DNA from: an uncultured Planctomycetales bacterium
GTDB lineage: Bacteria > Omnitrophota > Gorgyraeia > Gygaellales > Profunditerraquicolaceae
NCBI GenBank assembly: GCA_964603585.1
Contig: CAZRVK010000001.1
Coordinates: 5,327 to 69,326 of the forward strand
Length of the DNA stretch: 64,000 nt
Direction: 5' to 3'
Shown here: piece after piece, positions 7,921 through 60,640 of the stretch
Layout of the letters: every line of letters starts with the position of its first letter
How positions within the stretch are numbered: position 1 is the stretch's first letter
Translations under genes and position numbers: made by a program
Notes under the pieces: model-generated
Databases searched by the model: none
What the model was told of the DNA's origin: nothing
The model's input: only the letters and a program-made list of their open reading frames with translations

Positions 7921-8125
7921 CTCAAATAATAGCAAGAATGGATTTTAAACCGGCATCCCCAAAAAAGCCTAATCCCTATATCGAGATTTACATTGATGAA
8001 GAGGGGACGATATTGTTTACCCCGGTCACCAATTCTACAATCAACGTGCTGAAAACAATAATAGACCAACCAGAAGCCCTGCCGGTAACCTATTGCGGAT
8101 AGGCAAATCTTAAGGAGACAAATCC

Positions 8126-9673
8126 ATGGAAACCCGTTCAGACAAGGAAATTGATCTTTTAGTTAGATCACGCTATCCCTTGATCTATATCGTAAGCTGG
8201 GAAGAATCCCGGGTGCTCGAAAAGATCAAAACCATGTCCGAGCGCCACCAAAAGAAACTTTTAGTCTGGTCTACAACAAGAGGGATATTTACCCCTGAAG
8301 ACGGGCCTGAAAAAATAAACGAGGCGACCCGAGACCCTCTGAATGCGTTGAATCACATAGAGAAGTTCCCGGATCCGGCAATTTTTGTTTTCCTGGACTT
8401 CCATCCGTTTTTAGGCGACCAAACCGTGATCAGAAAACTGCGGGACCTGGTTTCAAACCTCAAGGGAACATATGAAACACTGATGATCCTTTCGCCGGTA
8501 TTAACCGTGCCGGTTGAATTGGAAAAAGACCTGTCGATTATTGATTATGACCTTCCGGATTATACCGAGATAAATGAATTGCTGGAGGCAATCCTACAGG
8601 TCGTCTCCAAGAATGAACAAATACAGATTGAACTGAATCCGCAAGACAGGGAAAAACTGGTAAAGGCATCACTTGGGCTAACCCGTTCAGAAGCAGAAAA
8701 TGCCTTTGCCAGAGTTATTGTAGAAGACAAAAGGTTGACCGTAAATGACGTGGAAAAGGTATTAGAGGAGAAAAAACAGGCGATCCGCAAAAGTAAACTG
8801 CTCGAATATTATGAATCAAAAGAGGAATTTGCTAACGTCGGAGGCCTTGATATCCTAAAGGATTGGCTTTTTACGCGAAGCTCTGCTTTTACCCAGCGCG
8901 CCCAGTCTTTCGGGCTACCCCAGCCAAAAGGGATAATGCTCCTGGGCGTACAGGGCTGCGGTAAAAGCCTGACGGCAAAAGCTGTTGCCAGTCTTTGGAA
9001 ACTACCTTTATTACGCCTGGATATTGGCGCGGTTTTCAGCGGGATCGTAGGCTCTTCCGAAGAAAACATGCGCAAAGCCATAAAAACCGCCGAAAACCTT
9101 GCCCCAATCATCCTCTGGATAGATGAGATCGAAAAAGGTTTATCCGGAGTGCAAAGTTCTTCATTTTCCGATGCCGGAACAGCTTCCAGAGTATTTAGCA
9201 CATTCTTAACCTGGCTTCAGGAAAAAACTGCCCCGGTATTCGTAATTGCTACCGCCAATAATATCCAGCAGCTCCCCCCTGAACTGCTGCGCAAAGGCAG
9301 ATTTGACGAGATTTTCTTTGTTGACCTGCCTTCATTAGAAGAACGCAAGGAAATATTCTCTATTCATATCAAAAAGAAAAAAAGGAGCCCGGAGCAATTC
9401 GACCTGCAAGCTCTGGCGGCGCAAAGCGATGGTTTCAGCGGAGCGGAAATTGAGCAAGCAATCGTCTCTTCACTATACGATGCCTTTATCAATAACCTTG
9501 ACATTACAACTGCCGGCATTCAGAAAAGTCTGAAAGAGGCCGTGCCCTTATCAACAACCATGAAGGAACAAATAGACCAGACCCGCGAATGGGCAAAATA
9601 CCGGGCACGCCCTACAAGCAGTGCAGGCGCAAAGAATATATCATTAAATAGCGGGCTAAAACTGGAATTTTAA
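8126..9673 (+). CDS. AAA+ ATPase, Ycf46-like (N-terminal alpha/beta domain plus classic AAA module)
   Basis: Walker [16 protein letters not shown], Walker [11 protein letters not shown], and second-region-of-homology-like [21 protein letters not shown]. The N-terminal region starting [12 protein letters not shown] is typical of Ycf46. Confidence 0.75.
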
Positions 9674-10374
9674 TGCTGAAGAAGATCCGTAAACGTTTTG
9701 AGAAAATTGAAAGTTCAGCAATCTATTTCAGAAATGATAGCGCAGAGCTGAAAAAATCAAAACGTTTTGAATGCCTGGAGATCGGCACGCGCAAGATAGA
9801 AATTGCCATTACCGATAAGATCTCTGCTATAGAAACCGCGCCGGATGAAATAAATTACTACGTTTTCTGCCCGTACTGTGGGAAAGAGAACCTGGCAATC
9901 TCAAAAACCTGCACCGGATGCAAACACTCTTTGGAAAGCAAATTGGCGGATAAATTCAATCGTACAACATCCCTGTTAAGAAAATGCACAGTTTGCCAGG
10001 CCATGAACACGAAGGGGCGGGAATTTTGTTGGGTTTGCGGGAAGAATTTACTTCACGATGCCCAACTAAATCCAGAAACAAAAAGTGATAATGTCATAAT
10101 CCTGAATCTTGATGGGGCTGAATACAGATCAACCGATACAAACCTGCCACTTGATGTAAAGGAGTTAATGGAGCAAATACGCCACCAAGGATATAAAAAA
10201 GAACTGATCGATGCCTGGATTTCAAATAAAGGCGGCAAAAATGATGATAAACTGGAGGGATTAAAACAGCAAATCGACCGGACGCAAACAGAATTCACAA
10301 GACGGCTTGTCGGGCTGATTATCGGAGGCGCAATCTTATTGATCTATATTATCTTAAGAATAAGCGGTTGTTAA
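9673..10374 (+). CDS. double zinc-ribbon protein with C-terminal TM anchor
   Basis: Two CxxC-x(n)-CxxC clusters (CPYCGKEN...CTGCKH and CTVCQAMN...CWVCGKN) and a hydrophobic C-terminus LVGLIIGGAILLIYIIL. The start overlaps the AAA stop (ATGA). Confidence 0.55.
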   Translation: MLKKIRKRFEKIESSAIYFRNDSAELKKSKRFECLEIGTRKIEIAITDKISAIETAPDEINYYVFCPYCGKENLAISKTCTGCKHSLESKLADKFNRTTSLLRKCTVCQAMNTKGREFCWVCGKNLLHDAQLNPETKSDNVIILNLDGAEYRSTDTNLPLDVKELMEQIRHQGYKKELIDAWISNKGGKNDDKLEGLKQQIDRTQTEFTRRLVGLIIGGAILLIYIILRISGC

Positions 10375-10386
10375 AAAGGAGATGCT

Positions 10387-10776
10387 ATGTCTTCAGGGGC
10401 GCATATAATCACTACCATAATGGAACTGATCGAGTTAAAGAACACACTTAACCAGTTAAAGGCCCAATATGAGGAAGTAAAAACCATGACTACCTGCGAT
10501 GGGATAAAACATAATGTCGAGATTATCATCAAAGACCCGAACGGGCGCAATATCGGCGTACAAAAATCCAAATCCGGCGAATACCAGTTCATCACCGATA
10601 CTACCGGACTAAAACCTAAAGATTTAAAAGCGCAAAATAAATTTGTTAATGCAATAAAACAGAAATATGCATATAATAAAGTGATCGCAGAGTTAAAACG
10701 GCAGGGTTATCAGATCGCGCAAGAGCAAAAAGTTGAGAACGATACTATAAAGCTGGTAGCCAGAAGGTGGAAGTAA
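10387..10776 (+). CDS. DUF1257 (Ycf35-like) protein
   Basis: C-terminal YAYNKVIAELKRQGYQIAQEQKVENDTIKLVARRW matches the DUF1257 consensus as I remember it. RBS AAGGAG lies upstream. Confidence 0.6.
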   Translation: MSSGAHIITTIMELIELKNTLNQLKAQYEEVKTMTTCDGIKHNVEIIIKDPNGRNIGVQKSKSGEYQFITDTTGLKPKDLKAQNKFVNAIKQKYAYNKVIAELKRQGYQIAQEQKVENDTIKLVARRWK

Positions 10777-10788
10777 AGGAGATCGATC

Positions 10789-10995
10789 ATGGCGGATAAG
10801 CAAGAAATAGAACTGTTTATTTCCGAGGAAGGTGAATTAAAACTTCATATTAAAGGTATTCCGGGGCCGGCATGTTTAAAAACATTAGACGATATAGTAC
10901 ATGCCGTAGGCATAGAAAAAGAGCGTAAATTGACCGATGAGTATTATCAAACCAAAATCAAACAAACGAATTTAAACCGGCAAAAAAACAAATAA
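10789..10995 (+). CDS. DUF2997 family small protein
   Basis: IELFISEEGELKLHIKGIPGPACL...TDEYY pattern typical of DUF2997. RBS AAGGAG at 10777-10782. Confidence 0.55.
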   Translation: MADKQEIELFISEEGELKLHIKGIPGPACLKTLDDIVHAVGIEKERKLTDEYYQTKIKQTNLNRQKNK

Positions 10996-10996
10996 A

Positions 10997-13777
10997 ATGA
11001 CCGAACTTACCACAAAATACAATCCTAAGGAAACAGAAGATAAATGGTATAAATTCTGGGAGGAGAACGGTTTATTTTGCGCAAAGGCTGATCCGGAGAA
11101 AAAACCTTTTTGCATCGTGATCCCTCCCCCAAATGTAACCGGTATTTTACATATGGGCCATGCCTTGAATAATACCATTCAAGATATCTTGATCCGCTAT
11201 CACCGAATGAAAAATGACTCTGCACTCTGGATGCCGGGCACTGACCATGCCGGTATTGCAACCCAAAACGTCGTAGAAAAAAAGATCGCTAAGGAAAACC
11301 TAAAACGTCAGGACCTGGGCAGGGATAAATTCATCGAGCAAGTATGGCTCTGGAAAGAGGAATACGGCTCAACCATTATCCGCCAGTTAAAGAAGTTAGG
11401 GGCTTCCTGTGATTGGAACCGGCTGCGTTTTACTATGGATGAGGAGTATTCCAAAGCGGTAGTCGAGGCCTTTGTCCGGCTTTATCAAAAAGGGTTGATT
11501 TATCAGGGGGATTATATCATTAACTGGTGCCCCAGATGCCAGACCGCGCTTTCCGATGAAGAAGCTCCTCATCATGACATTGCCGGAAACCTTTATTATT
11601 TAAGATACCCGGTAAGAATGAATGAGCAAGACAACGCCAGCACTCCAAAAACCGGTAATTCCAGGAAAAAAGCCAAGATCCCGGAATATATCGTAGTGGC
11701 AACTACCCGACCTGAAACCATGTTAGGGGATACCGCCGTTGCCGTAAATCCCAAAGACAAGCGTTACAGCCACCTGGTAGGCCATAACGTGATCGTTCCA
11801 TTAATAAACCGCCAGGTTAAAATCATCGCCGACCATATGGTCGATATGAAATTCGGCACCGGGGCGGTAAAAATAACCCCGGCCCATGACCCAAATGATT
11901 ACTTAAGCGGGAGGCGCCATGGACTGGAGTTCATCAATGTAATGTATCCTGACGGCAAAATGAACCAAAATGCCGCAGATTATAAGGATATGGACAGATT
12001 CGAAGCCCGGGAAGTGATCATACAGGACTTAAAGGAAAAGGGTCTTCTGGAAAAGATCACGCCTCATTCTTTATCCGCAGGACATTGTTACCGCTGCCAC
12101 ACGATCATCGAGCCGTATCTATCCAAGCAATGGTTTGTCAAGACCAAACCACTTGCCGCGCCGGCAATAGAAGCAGTCAAGAAAGGCAAGATCAAATTCC
12201 ACCCTAAACGCTGGACCAAAGTCTATTTGAACTGGATGGAGAACATACAGGACTGGTGTATCTCCCGCCAAATCTGGTGGGGACACCGTTTACCGGTTTA
12301 TTATTGCCAAAATTGCGTGAAATCGGTAAGCGAGTTAACAGTTCACAGTTCACAGTTAACAGAAAGTACCAAGAAGGGAATAATTGTTTCCCGGATAAAA
12401 CCGGAAAAATGCCCGGACTGCGGATCAACACGGATTATTCAGGATGAAGATGTCTTAGACACCTGGTTTTCCAGCTGGCTGTGGCCATTTGCTACTTTTT
12501 ACTGGCCGGACCATGATTTAAAGGATATTCATAAACAGGAGCTAAAATACTTTTATCCGACATCGGTATTGAGCACCGCTCCAGACATAATTTTCTTTTG
12601 GGTAGCACGCATGATCATGTCCGGAATAGAATTCATGAACGATATCCCTTTTAAAGATATATACATTCATGGCACCGTCCGTGACTCTGATGGAAGAAAA
12701 ATGTCGAAATCACTGGGTAACAGCATTGACCCTTTAGAGATAATCAACGAATACGGCACGGATGCCTTGCGCTTCAGTCTCATCTCTATTACCGCACAAG
12801 GACAGGATATCTTTCTATCTAAGGAAAGGTTCGAGTCTGGCAGGAATTTCGCCAATAAGATCTGGAATGCCTCAAGATTCATAATGATGAACCTTGAAGG
12901 CCAAAACCAGCAAAAAGACCTGTGTGCTTTCTTTAAAACTGAACAGTTAAGTCTGACTAACCGCTGGATCTTAAGCCGCTTTTATTCAGTCCTTAAAGAA
13001 ATCAATGCCAACCTTGATAATTTCAAGTTCAATGAATCCGCTAATATCTTATATGCCTTTTTCTGGCATGAGTTCTGCGATTGGTACCTGGAGGCGGTAA
13101 AGCCACAAATTAAGGACCCTGCGAACCAAATAGTAATCTTCAAGATCCTGGAAAAATCCTTAAGGATAATGCATCCTTTTATGCCCTTCATCACGGAAGA
13201 GATCTTCCAAACACTCGAAAGCCGGGCCGATGAAAACAAACGCCCGACAAGCATTATGGTAAGGTCCTGGCCGCACCTGCAGGAAGAGATGATCGATAAG
13301 AAATCCGAAAAACAAATGCAAAGCATCTTCAGCCTGATCGCAACAATAAGGAACATGCGCTCGAATATGGAGATAAAACCGGAACAGAAAGTAAAAATAG
13401 ATATCTTTGCGCATAATGCGGCCAAAGCAAAGCTGATCCTTGCAAATTCCGCATTGATCATAAATCTGGCGAAATTGGAAAACCTGGAAATCCTTGCCAA
13501 AAACAACCGGGCGGCGGCTACGCTTAGCGCCGTTTCCGATGATGCTGATATTTACATGCATCTAAGCGGGATACTGGATATCCCGAATGAGGTGAAAAAA
13601 ACCAAAGACAAGATCTCTAACCTGAAAGTTTCCATTAAATCAAAAGACGGCCGACTCAAAAATAAGGAATTCACCACCAAGGCCCCCCAAGAGATCGTGG
13701 AAAAGGAAATTGAAAGCAAGGCAAAATTGGAAGATGAACTGAAACGACTGGAGAAAATGCTCAATGACCTATCCTGA
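10997..13777 (+). CDS. valS: valine--tRNA ligase
   Basis: HMGH (ILHMGHALNN) and KMSKS motifs, an editing domain, and a C-terminal coiled coil. 926 aa. Confidence 0.95.
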   Translation: MTELTTKYNPKETEDKWYKFWEENGLFCAKADPEKKPFCIVIPPPNVTGILHMGHALNNTIQDILIRYHRMKNDSALWMPGTDHAGIATQNVVEKKIAKENLKRQDLGRDKFIEQVWLWKEEYGSTIIRQLKKLGASCDWNRLRFTMDEEYSKAVVEAFVRLYQKGLIYQGDYIINWCPRCQTALSDEEAPHHDIAGNLYYLRYPVRMNEQDNASTPKTGNSRKKAKIPEYIVVATTRPETMLGDTAVAVNPKDKRYSHLVGHNVIVPLINRQVKIIADHMVDMKFGTGAVKITPAHDPNDYLSGRRHGLEFINVMYPDGKMNQNAADYKDMDRFEAREVIIQDLKEKGLLEKITPHSLSAGHCYRCHTIIEPYLSKQWFVKTKPLAAPAIEAVKKGKIKFHPKRWTKVYLNWMENIQDWCISRQIWWGHRLPVYYCQNCVKSVSELTVHSSQLTESTKKGIIVSRIKPEKCPDCGSTRIIQDEDVLDTWFSSWLWPFATFYWPDHDLKDIHKQELKYFYPTSVLSTAPDIIFFWVARMIMSGIEFMNDIPFKDIYIHGTVRDSDGRKMSKSLGNSIDPLEIINEYGTDALRFSLISITAQGQDIFLSKERFESGRNFANKIWNASRFIMMNLEGQNQQKDLCAFFKTEQLSLTNRWILSRFYSVLKEINANLDNFKFNESANILYAFFWHEFCDWYLEAVKPQIKDPANQIVIFKILEKSLRIMHPFMPFITEEIFQTLESRADENKRPTSIMVRSWPHLQEEMIDKKSEKQMQSIFSLIATIRNMRSNMEIKPEQKVKIDIFAHNAAKAKLILANSALIINLAKLENLEILAKNNRAAATLSAVSDDADIYMHLSGILDIPNEVKKTKDKISNLKVSIKSKDGRLKNKEFTTKAPQEIVEKEIESKAKLEDELKRLEKMLNDLS

Positions 13778-48895: not shown

Positions 48896-48969
48896 GCCCC
48901 TGTAGCTCATAAGGATAGAGCAGCAGTTTCCTAAACTGCGTGCGGCAGGTTCGATTCCTGCCAGGGGCA
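48896..48969 (+). tRNA. tRNA-Arg (anticodon CCT)
   Basis: Cloverleaf folded by hand: acceptor GCCCCTG/CAGGGGC, D arm GCTC-ATAAGGATA-GAGC, anticodon stem GCAGT/ACTGC with loop TTCCTAA, T arm GCAGG-TTCGATT-CCTGC, discriminator A. Confidence 0.85.
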
Positions 48970-59683: not shown

Positions 59684-60640
59684 TTAGATGTTTGGTTTGA
59701 TATTACTCCCGGCAAATTTTTCCAGCCCATGCGAATCCTGGATCCATCCGTTAAATAACCCAAATCCGTACATCGTTTTCTCCGCTAAGGCATACTCTTC
59801 CAGGCTTATACGCCGAGACAAAGCTTTTATCTTAAGCGCCTTATAACATGGCAGGTACTGGCTCATCAAACTAACATATGTACCAGTCGATACCTCTTCG
59901 GCAATAAACTGCATGATCGATCCGGTACCGGATATCCCCTCCGGCAAAACAAGATGCCTGATGATCAATCCCTTTTGGATCAATCCTTCAGAATCGAACT
60001 GCCCCCCCCCTGCCTGCGAGTGCATCTGTTTTACCGCGGCCCGGTTATATTCCGGATAATCACCCGCGGCGGAATACTTTAATGCCTCTTCTTTACCCGC
60101 ATAACGCATATCTGCAAGATATACATCGATTATCCCGTCTAAGAGACAGATCATTTCCGGCAGCTCATAACCTCCGGTATTATAAATTAAAGGTATCCTA
60201 AGCCCTTTGGGAACAGCCAGGCAAAGCGCCTTTAATATCTGCGGCATGACATGCGTTGGGCTGACAAGATTAATATTGTGGCAGCCGGCAGCTTGCAATT
60301 GCAGCATAAAGCCTGCTAATTCTTCAAAACTTACTTCGCGGCCATTGCCCAGCTGGCTAAACTCATAATTCTGGCAATAAACACAACTCATGTTGCAATG
60401 AGAGAAAAATATCGTCCCCGAGCCATGACTTCCGGAAACCGGAGGTTCTTCCCCATGATGAGGGAACTGGCTATAGACTACCGGTAAAAGCGCTGTTTTA
60501 CAAAACCCCCTATCCCCTTTCAGGCGGTTAACCCGGCACTTACGCGGGCAAATCGCACACGACTCCAGCATTTTTAAGGCAATATCTGCCGTCCTGGCTA
60601 ATGACCCGTTTTCATAACTCCTTAAATACGAAGGGTTCAT
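59684..60640 (-). CDS. radical SAM protein, PflX-like (pyruvate formate-lyase activase-related, COG1313-type)
   Basis: N-terminal Cys cluster CAICPRKCRVNRLKGDRGFC, then GEEPPVSGSHGSGTIFFSHCNMSCVYCQN (CxxxCxxC). Confidence 0.7.
   Translation of the reverse strand: MNPSYLRSYENGSLARTADIALKMLESCAICPRKCRVNRLKGDRGFCKTALLPVVYSQFPHHGEEPPVSGSHGSGTIFFSHCNMSCVYCQNYEFSQLGNGREVSFEELAGFMLQLQAAGCHNINLVSPTHVMPQILKALCLAVPKGLRIPLIYNTGGYELPEMICLLDGIIDVYLADMRYAGKEEALKYSAAGDYPEYNRAAVKQMHSQAGGGQFDSEGLIQKGLIIRHLVLPEGISGTGSIMQFIAEEVSTGTYVSLMSQYLPCYKALKIKALSRRISLEEYALAEKTMYGFGLFNGWIQDSHGLEKFAGSNIKPNI

Follow-up and report, generated by a model that had tools for sequence, protein, structure and literature searches.

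The subject of this analysis is a five-gene operon on the forward strand of a 64-kb stretch of DNA (contig CAZRVK010000001.1, positions 5,327 to 69,326; the whole 64,000 nucleotides are called the window here, and all coordinates for it are window positions), which is built around an AAA+ ATPase of the Ycf46 type. In order, the genes encode a 54-aa protein called ORF54 (7938-8102), the 515-aa ATPase (8126-9673), a 233-aa double zinc-ribbon protein with a C-terminal transmembrane (TM) segment, referred to as ZnR-TM (9673-10374), a 129-aa DUF1257 (Ycf35-family) protein (10387-10776) and a 68-aa DUF2997 protein (10789-10995). These five open reading frames (ORFs) had been listed in a first-pass annotation of the sequence, and all of them are present where it placed them on the plus strand, co-directional and separated by -1 to 23 nt. 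An AGGAG Shine-Dalgarno sequence lies 5' of the ATPase (ATG at 8126), DUF1257 and DUF2997 genes, and ORF54 has no clear one. The start of the ZnR-TM gene likewise has no Shine-Dalgarno sequence, and its ATG overlaps the ATPase stop codon by 1 nt as TAATG, where the annotation had read an ATGA overlap; the overlap and the missing Shine-Dalgarno sequence together indicate translational coupling of ZnR-TM to the ATPase. Terminator-like sites were not found on the plus strand between 6000 and 12273, promoter-like matches are at chance level, and the block from 7938 to 10995 is most simply read as one transcription unit inside a longer housekeeping string.

The ATPase matches the Pfam AAA model PF00004 at 101 bits against a cut-off of 21.2, together with AAA_lid_3, and it has the layout proposed in the annotation, with a highly conserved N-terminal domain ahead of a classical AAA module (residues 233-515, 8822-9673). 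In this module, Walker A (GVQGCGKS) is found at residues 274-281, Walker B (DE) at 333-334 and a conserved, non-aromatic pore loop 1 (GIVG) at 306-309, and the second region of homology includes R389/R392. Across 65 homologues, Walker A, Walker B, sensor-1, N378 and the arginine-finger region (R389/R392) are invariant; the AAA module is intact in its motifs and the protein qualifies as a classical AAA ATPase. The nearest solved sequences to the module are the D2 domains of Cdc48/p97 (E ~5e-51).

The N-terminal half of the ATPase (residues 1-232, 8126-8821) has no Walker A motif and carries SWEE at the P-loop position, and residues 1-200 have no match by sequence in the PDB. Seven residues are invariant in this half (R16, Y17, E26, E27, R29, D91 and R103). 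The AlphaFold2 (AF2) model of the ATPase has a mean predicted local distance difference test score (pLDDT) of 80, with values of 85-95 over the N-terminal half, and has a Rossmann-like alpha/beta domain and a helical lid ahead of the canonical AAA module. When the full-length model was compared with the PDB, it aligned to the D1-D2 tiers of p97/Cdc48, AFG2/Drg1, SPATA5 and Rix7 over 540-580 columns, with a query TM-score of ~0.6. Because the model aligns to D1-D2 and SWEE stands in place of the P-loop, the Ycf46-specific N-domain can be read as a degenerate, D1-like AAA tier that would have no nucleotide site, and each subunit is predicted to resemble a p97/Cdc48-type tandem ATPase minus the N domain.

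Assignment to the Ycf46 family follows from the combination of an N-terminal domain of ~230 aa (RYPLIY..SWEE type) with a single active AAA module, which is the same two-part arrangement as in cyanobacterial and plastid Ycf46 (Slr0374, Synpcc7942_0417 in cyanobacteria). The protein matches cyanobacterial plasmid proteins over its full length at 40-46% identity, with ~46% identity over 94-96% of the length for plasmid copies that are clustered with DUF1257 and DUF2997, and it matches phrog_8638 over its full length as well (513 bits); close homologues carry just the label 'SpoVK/Ycf46/Vps4 family' at JGI. The small-protein partners are kept as well, and the genomic association with DUF1257 and DUF2997 is found in the window, in 24 of the 79 loci surveyed below and on cyanobacterial plasmids. 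The window system differs in having five genes, with ZnR-TM and ORF54 added, and in its host, which is not a phototroph. The ATPase is 100% identical to a protein on a 512-kb contig, and its closest named relatives come from metagenome-assembled genomes of Candidatus Omnitrophota (57-76% identity); these relatives place the host in that phylum, so that the non-photosynthetic context given in the annotation is correct.

In cyanobacteria, ycf46 sits in a three-gene stress operon, one of the transcription units of model species whose expression rises most strongly under many kinds of stress, at low inorganic carbon, in blue light and on growth arrest; its function is stated to be unknown (PMC7496141; PMC7283877; bioRxiv 10.1101/2025.07.21.665879). 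The annotation had assigned the three families to one such operon; the literature supports a three-gene stress operon around ycf46, in which the products of slr0373 and slr0376 of Synechocystis are putative DUF2997 and DUF1257 proteins, and Synechocystis also has a separate DUF2997-ycf35-fed7 cluster (PMC4284462). A search of the available literature found no mechanistic paper on Ycf46, DUF1257 or DUF2997.

To survey conservation, the N-terminal domains of nine homologues were aligned and one genome per GTDB species was scanned, which gave at least 535 relatives; the best 80 loci were kept, of which 79 contain the ATPase, and these 79 were searched with local profiles rebuilt from clean sequence sets. 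They cover seven phyla (Omnitrophota, Elusimicrobiota, Myxococcota, Planctomycetota, Verrucomicrobiota, Armatimonadota and Methylomirabilota). DUF1257/DUF2997 genes lie 3' of the ATPase in 24 of the 79 loci, in the first five of these phyla, and each accompanies the other on every contig of sufficient length. ZnR-TM is directly 3' of the ATPase in 34 loci, both ZnR-TM and the DUF pair are found in 15, and neither is found in 36, including all 21 from Armatimonadota. The gene order is thus kept in relatives, and the earlier statement that the linkage is conserved outside phototrophs is borne out in the 24 loci with the pair, and fails as a universal rule in the 36 with no partner at all. Other neighbours were considered as partners (a transketolase, a XerD-like recombinase, a tetratricopeptide repeat protein, a PilT-like ATPase and an extracytoplasmic function (ECF) sigma factor) and were set aside as lineage-specific synteny, with no partner shared across phyla.

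The two ribbons of ZnR-TM lie at residues 66-83 and 105-122 and are formed by four CxxC pairs (C66/C69/C80/C83 and C105/C108/C119/C122); the DZR model PF12773 is matched at 27.9 bits against a cut-off of 27.3, Zn_Ribbon_1 matches too, and a hydrophobic C-terminal segment at 212-228 provides the TM anchor, in line with the domain reading of the annotation. Two RF-x-x-[IL]-E motifs are found near the N-terminus (R8F9 and R31F32), and a conserved module, DG-x-x-Y-R-S-x-D-x-N-L-P...RIRxxGY, follows the ribbons at residues ~145-182. The annotation had taken this protein for an insertion among the three known families. It is instead a recurrent partner, since it is present in 34 of the 79 loci (8/10 of those from Omnitrophota and close relatives, 1/3 from Elusimicrobiota and 25/30 from Myxococcota) and is homologous across phyla, with an hhalign probability of 95% (E 3e-8) between the Omnitrophota and Myxococcota forms. 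Both forms have the RF-x-x-L-E motifs at the N-terminus as well as the second ribbon; the Myxococcota homologues lack the first ribbon, which is a gain in the Omnitrophota form.

A reverse test, in which a hand-made degenerate DNA pattern for ZnR-TM was run against metagenome contigs, gave 18 matches, 14 of which are true members of the family. The ATPase lies directly upstream in 12 of the 13 members that have any upstream sequence (the exception, L102, is a 1.3-kb contig with 430 nt upstream, where no ATPase was seen), and DUF1257 and DUF2997 lie downstream in 13 of the 14. In a single-sequence search of 1.84 billion sequences, the ZnR-TM family comprises 94 cluster representatives (50% identity) at E<=1e-3, and it has no dedicated Pfam model. 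Several variations on this protein were observed: two loci carry two paralogues each (L008, 1918-2463 and 3077-3529; L064, 6528-7187 and 7209-7976), and in an Elusimicrobiota locus (L034, 4044-4766) the DGxxYxSxDxNLP module is doubled and a TM segment was not detected. In a Verrucomicrobia-type locus (L091, 606-5678), with the order ECF sigma factor, 75-aa protein, rhomboid protease, radical S-adenosylmethionine (SAM) protein, 61-aa protein, ATPase, 108-aa two-TM protein, DUF1257 and DUF2997, the position of ZnR-TM is taken by a non-homologous small membrane protein. The possibility that the post-ribbon module DGxxYRSxDxNLP is a hairpin-helix like that of DUF2997 or ORF54 was rejected (hhalign probability <1%).

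Both small proteins at the 3' end score above their Pfam cut-offs, as the annotation had predicted. The DUF1257 protein, a family that equates to ycf35 (PMC4284462; bioRxiv 10.1101/2025.10.13.678797), matches PF06868 at 73.6 bits against 22.2, over profile positions 1-103 of 103, and also matches phrog_20456. Its AF2 model (pLDDT 86) has a beta-sheet against one long helix; a Foldseek search of this model against the PDB gave no significant match (best E 0.11), comparison with viral structure models gave one unnamed match, and a scan of viral contigs with DUF1257 gave one locus. An N-terminal TM segment suspected in the first ~30 residues of DUF1257 proteins from Planctomycetota/Verrucomicrobiota (PVC) aligns with the normal first strand and helix and is not read as a membrane anchor. 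The DUF2997 protein matches PF11211 at 30.7 bits against 24.1, over profile positions 1-47 of 47, as well as phrog_23133, and follows the conserved pattern E-x-E-x-x-I-x3-G...G-x-x-G-x-x-C, with its single conserved cysteine inside G-x-x-G-x-x-C. No solved relative of either protein was found by sequence in the PDB.

ORF54, which had been noted as a possible gene, is a real one, with homologues directly 5' of the ATPase in relatives (L003-L006, L008 and six metagenome contigs, L099, L105, L108, L111, L112 and L114). Its N-terminus is basic, its core, YIEIYIDEEGTILF, resembles a beta-hairpin, and it ends in an invariant YCG; the homologues share the core Y-[IL]-E-I-x-I-x-E-x-G and always end in YCG or FCG. 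Comparison of ORF54 with the DUF2997 hairpin gave a weak match (hhalign probability 66% over 15 columns), which is only suggestive of ORF54 being a divergent DUF2997. The 61-aa protein of locus L091 occupies the same position as ORF54 and is similar to it by eye (GEILILADGKIL versus YIEIYIDEEGTIL).

An indication of how these proteins may work together comes from the C-terminal tail of the ATPase, which in the window ends in the motif K-L-E-F (9659-9670) after a disordered linker; the pLDDT of residues 501-515 is below 50, which is consistent with disorder. The tail consensus is [RK][RK][LIMV]E[LFV]-COOH in Omnitrophota, Elusimicrobiota and PVC, and [STA]RFG in Myxococcota, and ATPase copies from plasmids and phages have similar basic-hydrophobic-acidic-hydrophobic tails. 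When the count is restricted to loci where the ATPase is complete and sufficient sequence follows it, the tail and an adjacent DUF1257/DUF2997 pair occur together in 22 and are both absent from 46, with the tail alone in one locus (L082) and the pair alone in another (L011, whose motif is internal and not terminal); the Fisher p of 6e-16 overstates independence, as the loci are phylogenetically clustered and amount to about 3-4 independent contrasts. The relation covers several independent contrasts and two motif types, and is also seen within clades (both/tail only/pair only/neither: Myxococcota 6/0/0/18, PVC 6/1/0/7, Elusimicrobiota 2/0/0/1). In L011 (4998-6575), the sole DUF-linked locus without a terminal motif, the ATPase has ERKLEF followed by 19 further residues, which could be due to a mutated stop codon or be a genuine extension. 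Since the tail is present almost only beside DUF1257/DUF2997, its simplest reading is as a docking site for the pair.

Taken together, these features are interpreted, with moderate confidence, as a membrane-tethered protein-remodelling machine encoded at 7938-10995, with an AAA+ ATPase of the Ycf46 family at its centre and a cofactor of two proteins bound to the ATPase tail, a reading that agrees with the earlier idea of a membrane-associated unfoldase with small adaptors. In the proposed mechanism, the ATPase would form a hexamer, a pseudo-two-tier unfoldase or segregase that threads or pulls clients through its GIVG pore loops, and ZnR-TM would tether this hexamer to the membrane on its cytoplasmic side, probably by its two N-terminal RF-x-x-L-E motifs. 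The DUF1257-DUF2997 cofactor would dock on the flexible R-K-L-E-F/L tail, much as the tails of p97 and proteasomal ATPases recruit partners, and may select or regulate substrates, with ORF54 as a putative additional small subunit or regulator. Stress adaptation is the expected role of the system, given the analogy to the ycf46 operon of cyanobacteria.

The same co-occurrence data, both the locus counts and the tail/pair counts, would be seen if the DUF1257-DUF2997 pair, and possibly ZnR-TM and ORF54, were clients or effectors of the ATPase rather than adaptors, and we consider this somewhat unlikely. The pair would then be a latent growth-arrest or regulatory pair that is activated, disassembled or extracted from the membrane by the ATPase, and ZnR-TM a tail-anchored, anti-sigma-like regulator that is removed. 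Such a role would suit the induction of the cyanobacterial operon at a time when growth is arrested and ribosomal genes are repressed (bioRxiv 10.1101/2025.07.21.665879), as well as the Verrucomicrobia-type loci, in which genes for an ECF sigma factor, a small protein and a rhomboid protease precede the ATPase in the same orientation; the zinc-ribbon plus TM layout also recalls membrane-bound regulators. However, the stoichiometric translational coupling of ZnR-TM and the ATPase would be more usual for a stable subunit, docking tails are a classical means by which enzymes recruit cofactors, and no DNA-binding or sigma-binding domain was detected in the small proteins.

Several points weigh against the remodelling machine with its tail-bound cofactor, in addition to the phylogenetic clustering of the tail counts. 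The linkage is modular and not universal, and the ATPases of the 36 loci with neither partner work without them. The interactions among the operon proteins are deduced from sequence and co-occurrence, and the correlation of tail and DUF pair could also reflect a pair that is a substrate or an inhibitor. Threading is not assured by a pore loop 1 that has no usual aromatic residue. The D1-like assignment comes from a predicted structure, and an internal duplication was not recovered by sequence, where a profile comparison of the N-terminal and C-terminal halves was not significant (E 0.14), although it did align the 'LP..EE' and 'G.T..EAEN' lid elements. As DUF1257 has no informative structural neighbours, its fold gives no functional clue. 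Finally, the occurrence of the trio of ATPase, DUF1257 and DUF2997 on plasmids and phage-like elements, described below, fits a housekeeping stress role less well.

The predicted machine can be compared with several known AAA systems. The predicted window subunit aligns over both AAA tiers with p97/Cdc48/VAT, AFG2/SPATA5 and Rix7, which are cofactor-dependent type II unfoldases of the AAA+ classical clade, and its AAA module is nearest to D2 domains in sequence. The flexible C-terminal tail of p97 binds cofactors, and the window ATPase tail likewise carries a short conserved motif; as in p97-type systems, recruitment to the membrane would go via separate anchored adaptors. In contrast to these systems, the first tier in the window has no Walker A and would have no usual nucleotide binding, a double-psi-barrel N domain is absent, pore loop 1 reads GIVG and is not aromatic, and DUF1257, DUF2997 and ZnR-TM are unrelated to UBX, PUB and Npl4. 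The two nucleotide-binding tiers plus N domain that make up the p97/Cdc48 tandem are therefore not present. FtsH and Msp1/ATAD1 are like the proposed system in having a classical-clade AAA module at the membrane surface, with Msp1 acting on tail-anchored proteins, but the window ATPase has no TM segment or protease domain of its own and its membrane link would be provided in trans by ZnR-TM; the NCBIfam models for FtsH match the AAA module only, at 98.7 bits against a cut-off of 600.

It is hardly credible that these genes are neighbours by chance and have no functional link. General genome compactness, with nearly all genes over 57 kb on one strand, would favour such an adjacency; against it, the order is kept across phyla, translational coupling is indicated, the tail motif co-varies with the DUF pair, and the reverse test anchored on ZnR-TM returns the same operon, so that the conservation data exclude it.

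The location of the operon bears on a further alternative. In the window, it is flanked upstream by an aspartokinase gene and a citramalate/isopropylmalate-synthase-like gene and downstream by valS and nadC, and the synteny aspK-cimA-[operon]-valS-nadC is repeated across Omnitrophota contigs, which indicates a core-genome location. At 10993-10999, a single base separates the DUF2997 stop codon (TAA) from the ATG of valS, which has no Shine-Dalgarno sequence; from this arrangement, the essential valS appears to be co-transcribed with the operon and translationally coupled to it.

Members of all three families are also found on mobile elements. Full-length members of the ATPase family were identified in 76 records of phages (chiefly cluster-O-like mycobacteriophages, along with a Streptococcus satellite phage) and, with coverage of 80% or more of the ATPase query, in 76 records of plasmids; the ATPase, DUF1257 and DUF2997 each have a PHROG family. 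The gene arrangements on plasmids vary, with ATPase-DUF1257-DUF2997 in Paenibacillus, ATPase-hypothetical protein-DUF2997 in Paenarthrobacter, a DUF1257-like ORF upstream of an ATPase-DUF2997 pair in Bacillus cereus, and looser clusters of the three in Geminocystis and Planktothrix. Look-ups anchored on DUF1257 found DUF2997 adjacent in 6/6 cases and the ATPase within 3 kb in 5/6, and several of these loci are mobile-element-like. On the Pseudanabaena galeata plasmid pPg_01 (L085, 1-5518), a co-directional string of GrpE, Hsp70, DUF1257, ATP-binding protein, hypothetical protein, DUF2997 and ATPase joins the trio with a second chaperone system; here DUF2997 is directly 5' of the ATPase and DUF1257 ~1.9 kb further upstream, as opposed to the window order of ATPase, ZnR-TM, DUF1257 and DUF2997. 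Among the phages, Mycobacterium phage TelAviv (L086, gene 93), 33 other mycobacteriophage records and Streptococcus satellite phage Javan368 have full-length ATPases at 33-35% identity and 96-98% coverage with no recognisable DUF1257 or DUF2997 nearby, and the TelAviv protein still has a tail-like end, VRVLDL.

This distribution would suit a conflict system, in which the genes serve anti-phage or anti-plasmid defence or the maintenance of mobile elements and the Omnitrophota copy is domesticated or resident, a proposal that we judge improbable. The phage and plasmid members and the PHROG families for all three proteins speak for it, as do plasmid and phage-like contexts with zeta toxin, RloB plus an ATP-binding protein, MT-A70, VapE and ParA, and the AAA module partially matches the defence ATPase IetA (PADLOC IetA, 92 bits; NCBIfam IteA, 79.9 bits against a family cut-off of 510). 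However, the IetA matches are limited to residues 256-476 and concern the generic AAA module only, nothing in IetAS is related to the N-terminal half or to the small partners, and the window operon has no IetS-like or other protease partner; it is thus not an IetAS defence system. In addition, no PADLOC model matches the three small proteins, the fixed position between cimA and valS across Omnitrophota genomes only 57-75% identical is a core-genome pattern and not that of an island, and ycf46 and ycf35 are kept as core genes in cyanobacteria and plastids.

In other lineages, a further type of partner has been observed. A distinct Fer4_12/radical-SAM family of 190-240 aa is encoded beside the ATPase or the DUF pair in several of them, with two loci in Elusimicrobiota, five in Myxococcota, the Verrucomicrobia-type contig and plasmids of Treponema, Bacillus, Paenibacillus and Paenarthrobacter. 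Five of these sequences have 28-42% mutual identity and score 93-119 bits against the NrdG model TIGR02491, whose cut-off is 126, and they are referred to here as NrdG-like. The genes are located at L002 5381-5956, L026 4393-4998, L025 7523-8554 (minus strand), L089 6278-6859, L084 2059-2700, L083 3369-3977, L090 7122-7748 and L091 2203-2925.

On this basis, the ATPase and DUF pair could serve radical chemistry, with an NrdG-like radical-SAM activase as the centre of the system and the window holding part of it; the machine would present or recycle a radical-carrying or radical-accepting protein, for example, or act with an Fe-S partner such as Fed7. The recurrence of the NrdG-like family in several lineages and plasmids and the DUF2997-ycf35-fed7 cluster of Synechocystis (PMC4284462) point this way. 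Against this stand a profile of the five proteins that found no match among the ORFs of the 64-kb window at E<=1e-3, the absence of the family from +-5 kb of the Omnitrophota ATPase loci and the lack of a radical-SAM gene in most ATPase/DUF loci; in addition, no glycyl-radical-type substrate motif was identified, and we consider this account quite improbable. The window does not contain the extended ATPase/DUF/radical-SAM module. It does encode a 318-aa radical-SAM-type ORF with a CNMSCVYCQN motif (59684-60640, minus strand), which lies ~49 kb from the operon and, having no match to the profile at E<=1e-3, falls outside the ATPase-linked family. Two plasmid loci with the ATPase, DUF2997 and radical-SAM genes also encode a helix-hairpin-helix protein (HHH_3, ComEA-like; L084 3166-3906 in Bacillus cereus and L090 6241-7125 in Paenarthrobacter), a neighbour that hints at a DNA-related role of the mobile-element versions.

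Beyond the machine proposed for the window, a broader and tentative view, which we think rather unlikely to hold in full, is that prokaryotes have an ancient, modular counterpart of p97 and its cofactors with Ycf46 as its core, consisting of a pseudo-two-tier hexamer with a tail-recruited DUF pair, a ZnR-TM tether in several phyla and coupling to NrdG-like radical-SAM proteins elsewhere. If true, this would be a radical- or Fe-S-linked protein-remodelling pathway common to cells, plastids, plasmids and phages. The Ycf46/Ycf35/DUF2997 module was known beforehand as uncharacterised, and Ycf46 and Ycf35 are conserved cyanobacterial and plastid reading frames of unknown mechanism; the form described here is a five-gene, membrane-anchored one in a non-phototroph. 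New in this analysis are the ZnR-TM partner family, the predicted D1-like N-domain, the co-variation of tail and DUF pair, and the association with radical-SAM proteins in other lineages. As the module is widespread in non-phototrophs, it is no photosynthesis-specific device, and a modular set of partners can now be defined (DUF1257-DUF2997, the tail-anchored zinc-ribbon protein and the NrdG-like radical-SAM protein), with the tail motif of the ATPase as a predictor of whether the DUF pair is present. The module can now also be studied in cultured organisms that are not phototrophs, for instance in isolates of the myxobacteria Archangium and Citreicoccus.

With regard to the rest of the window, its only tRNA gene is tRNA-Arg(CCT) at 48896-48969, and no further Rfam match was found. 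Nearly all ORFs of at least 200 aa in the first 57 kb are on the plus strand, the minus strand is used from ~59.7 kb, and the GC skew is negative past ~58 kb.

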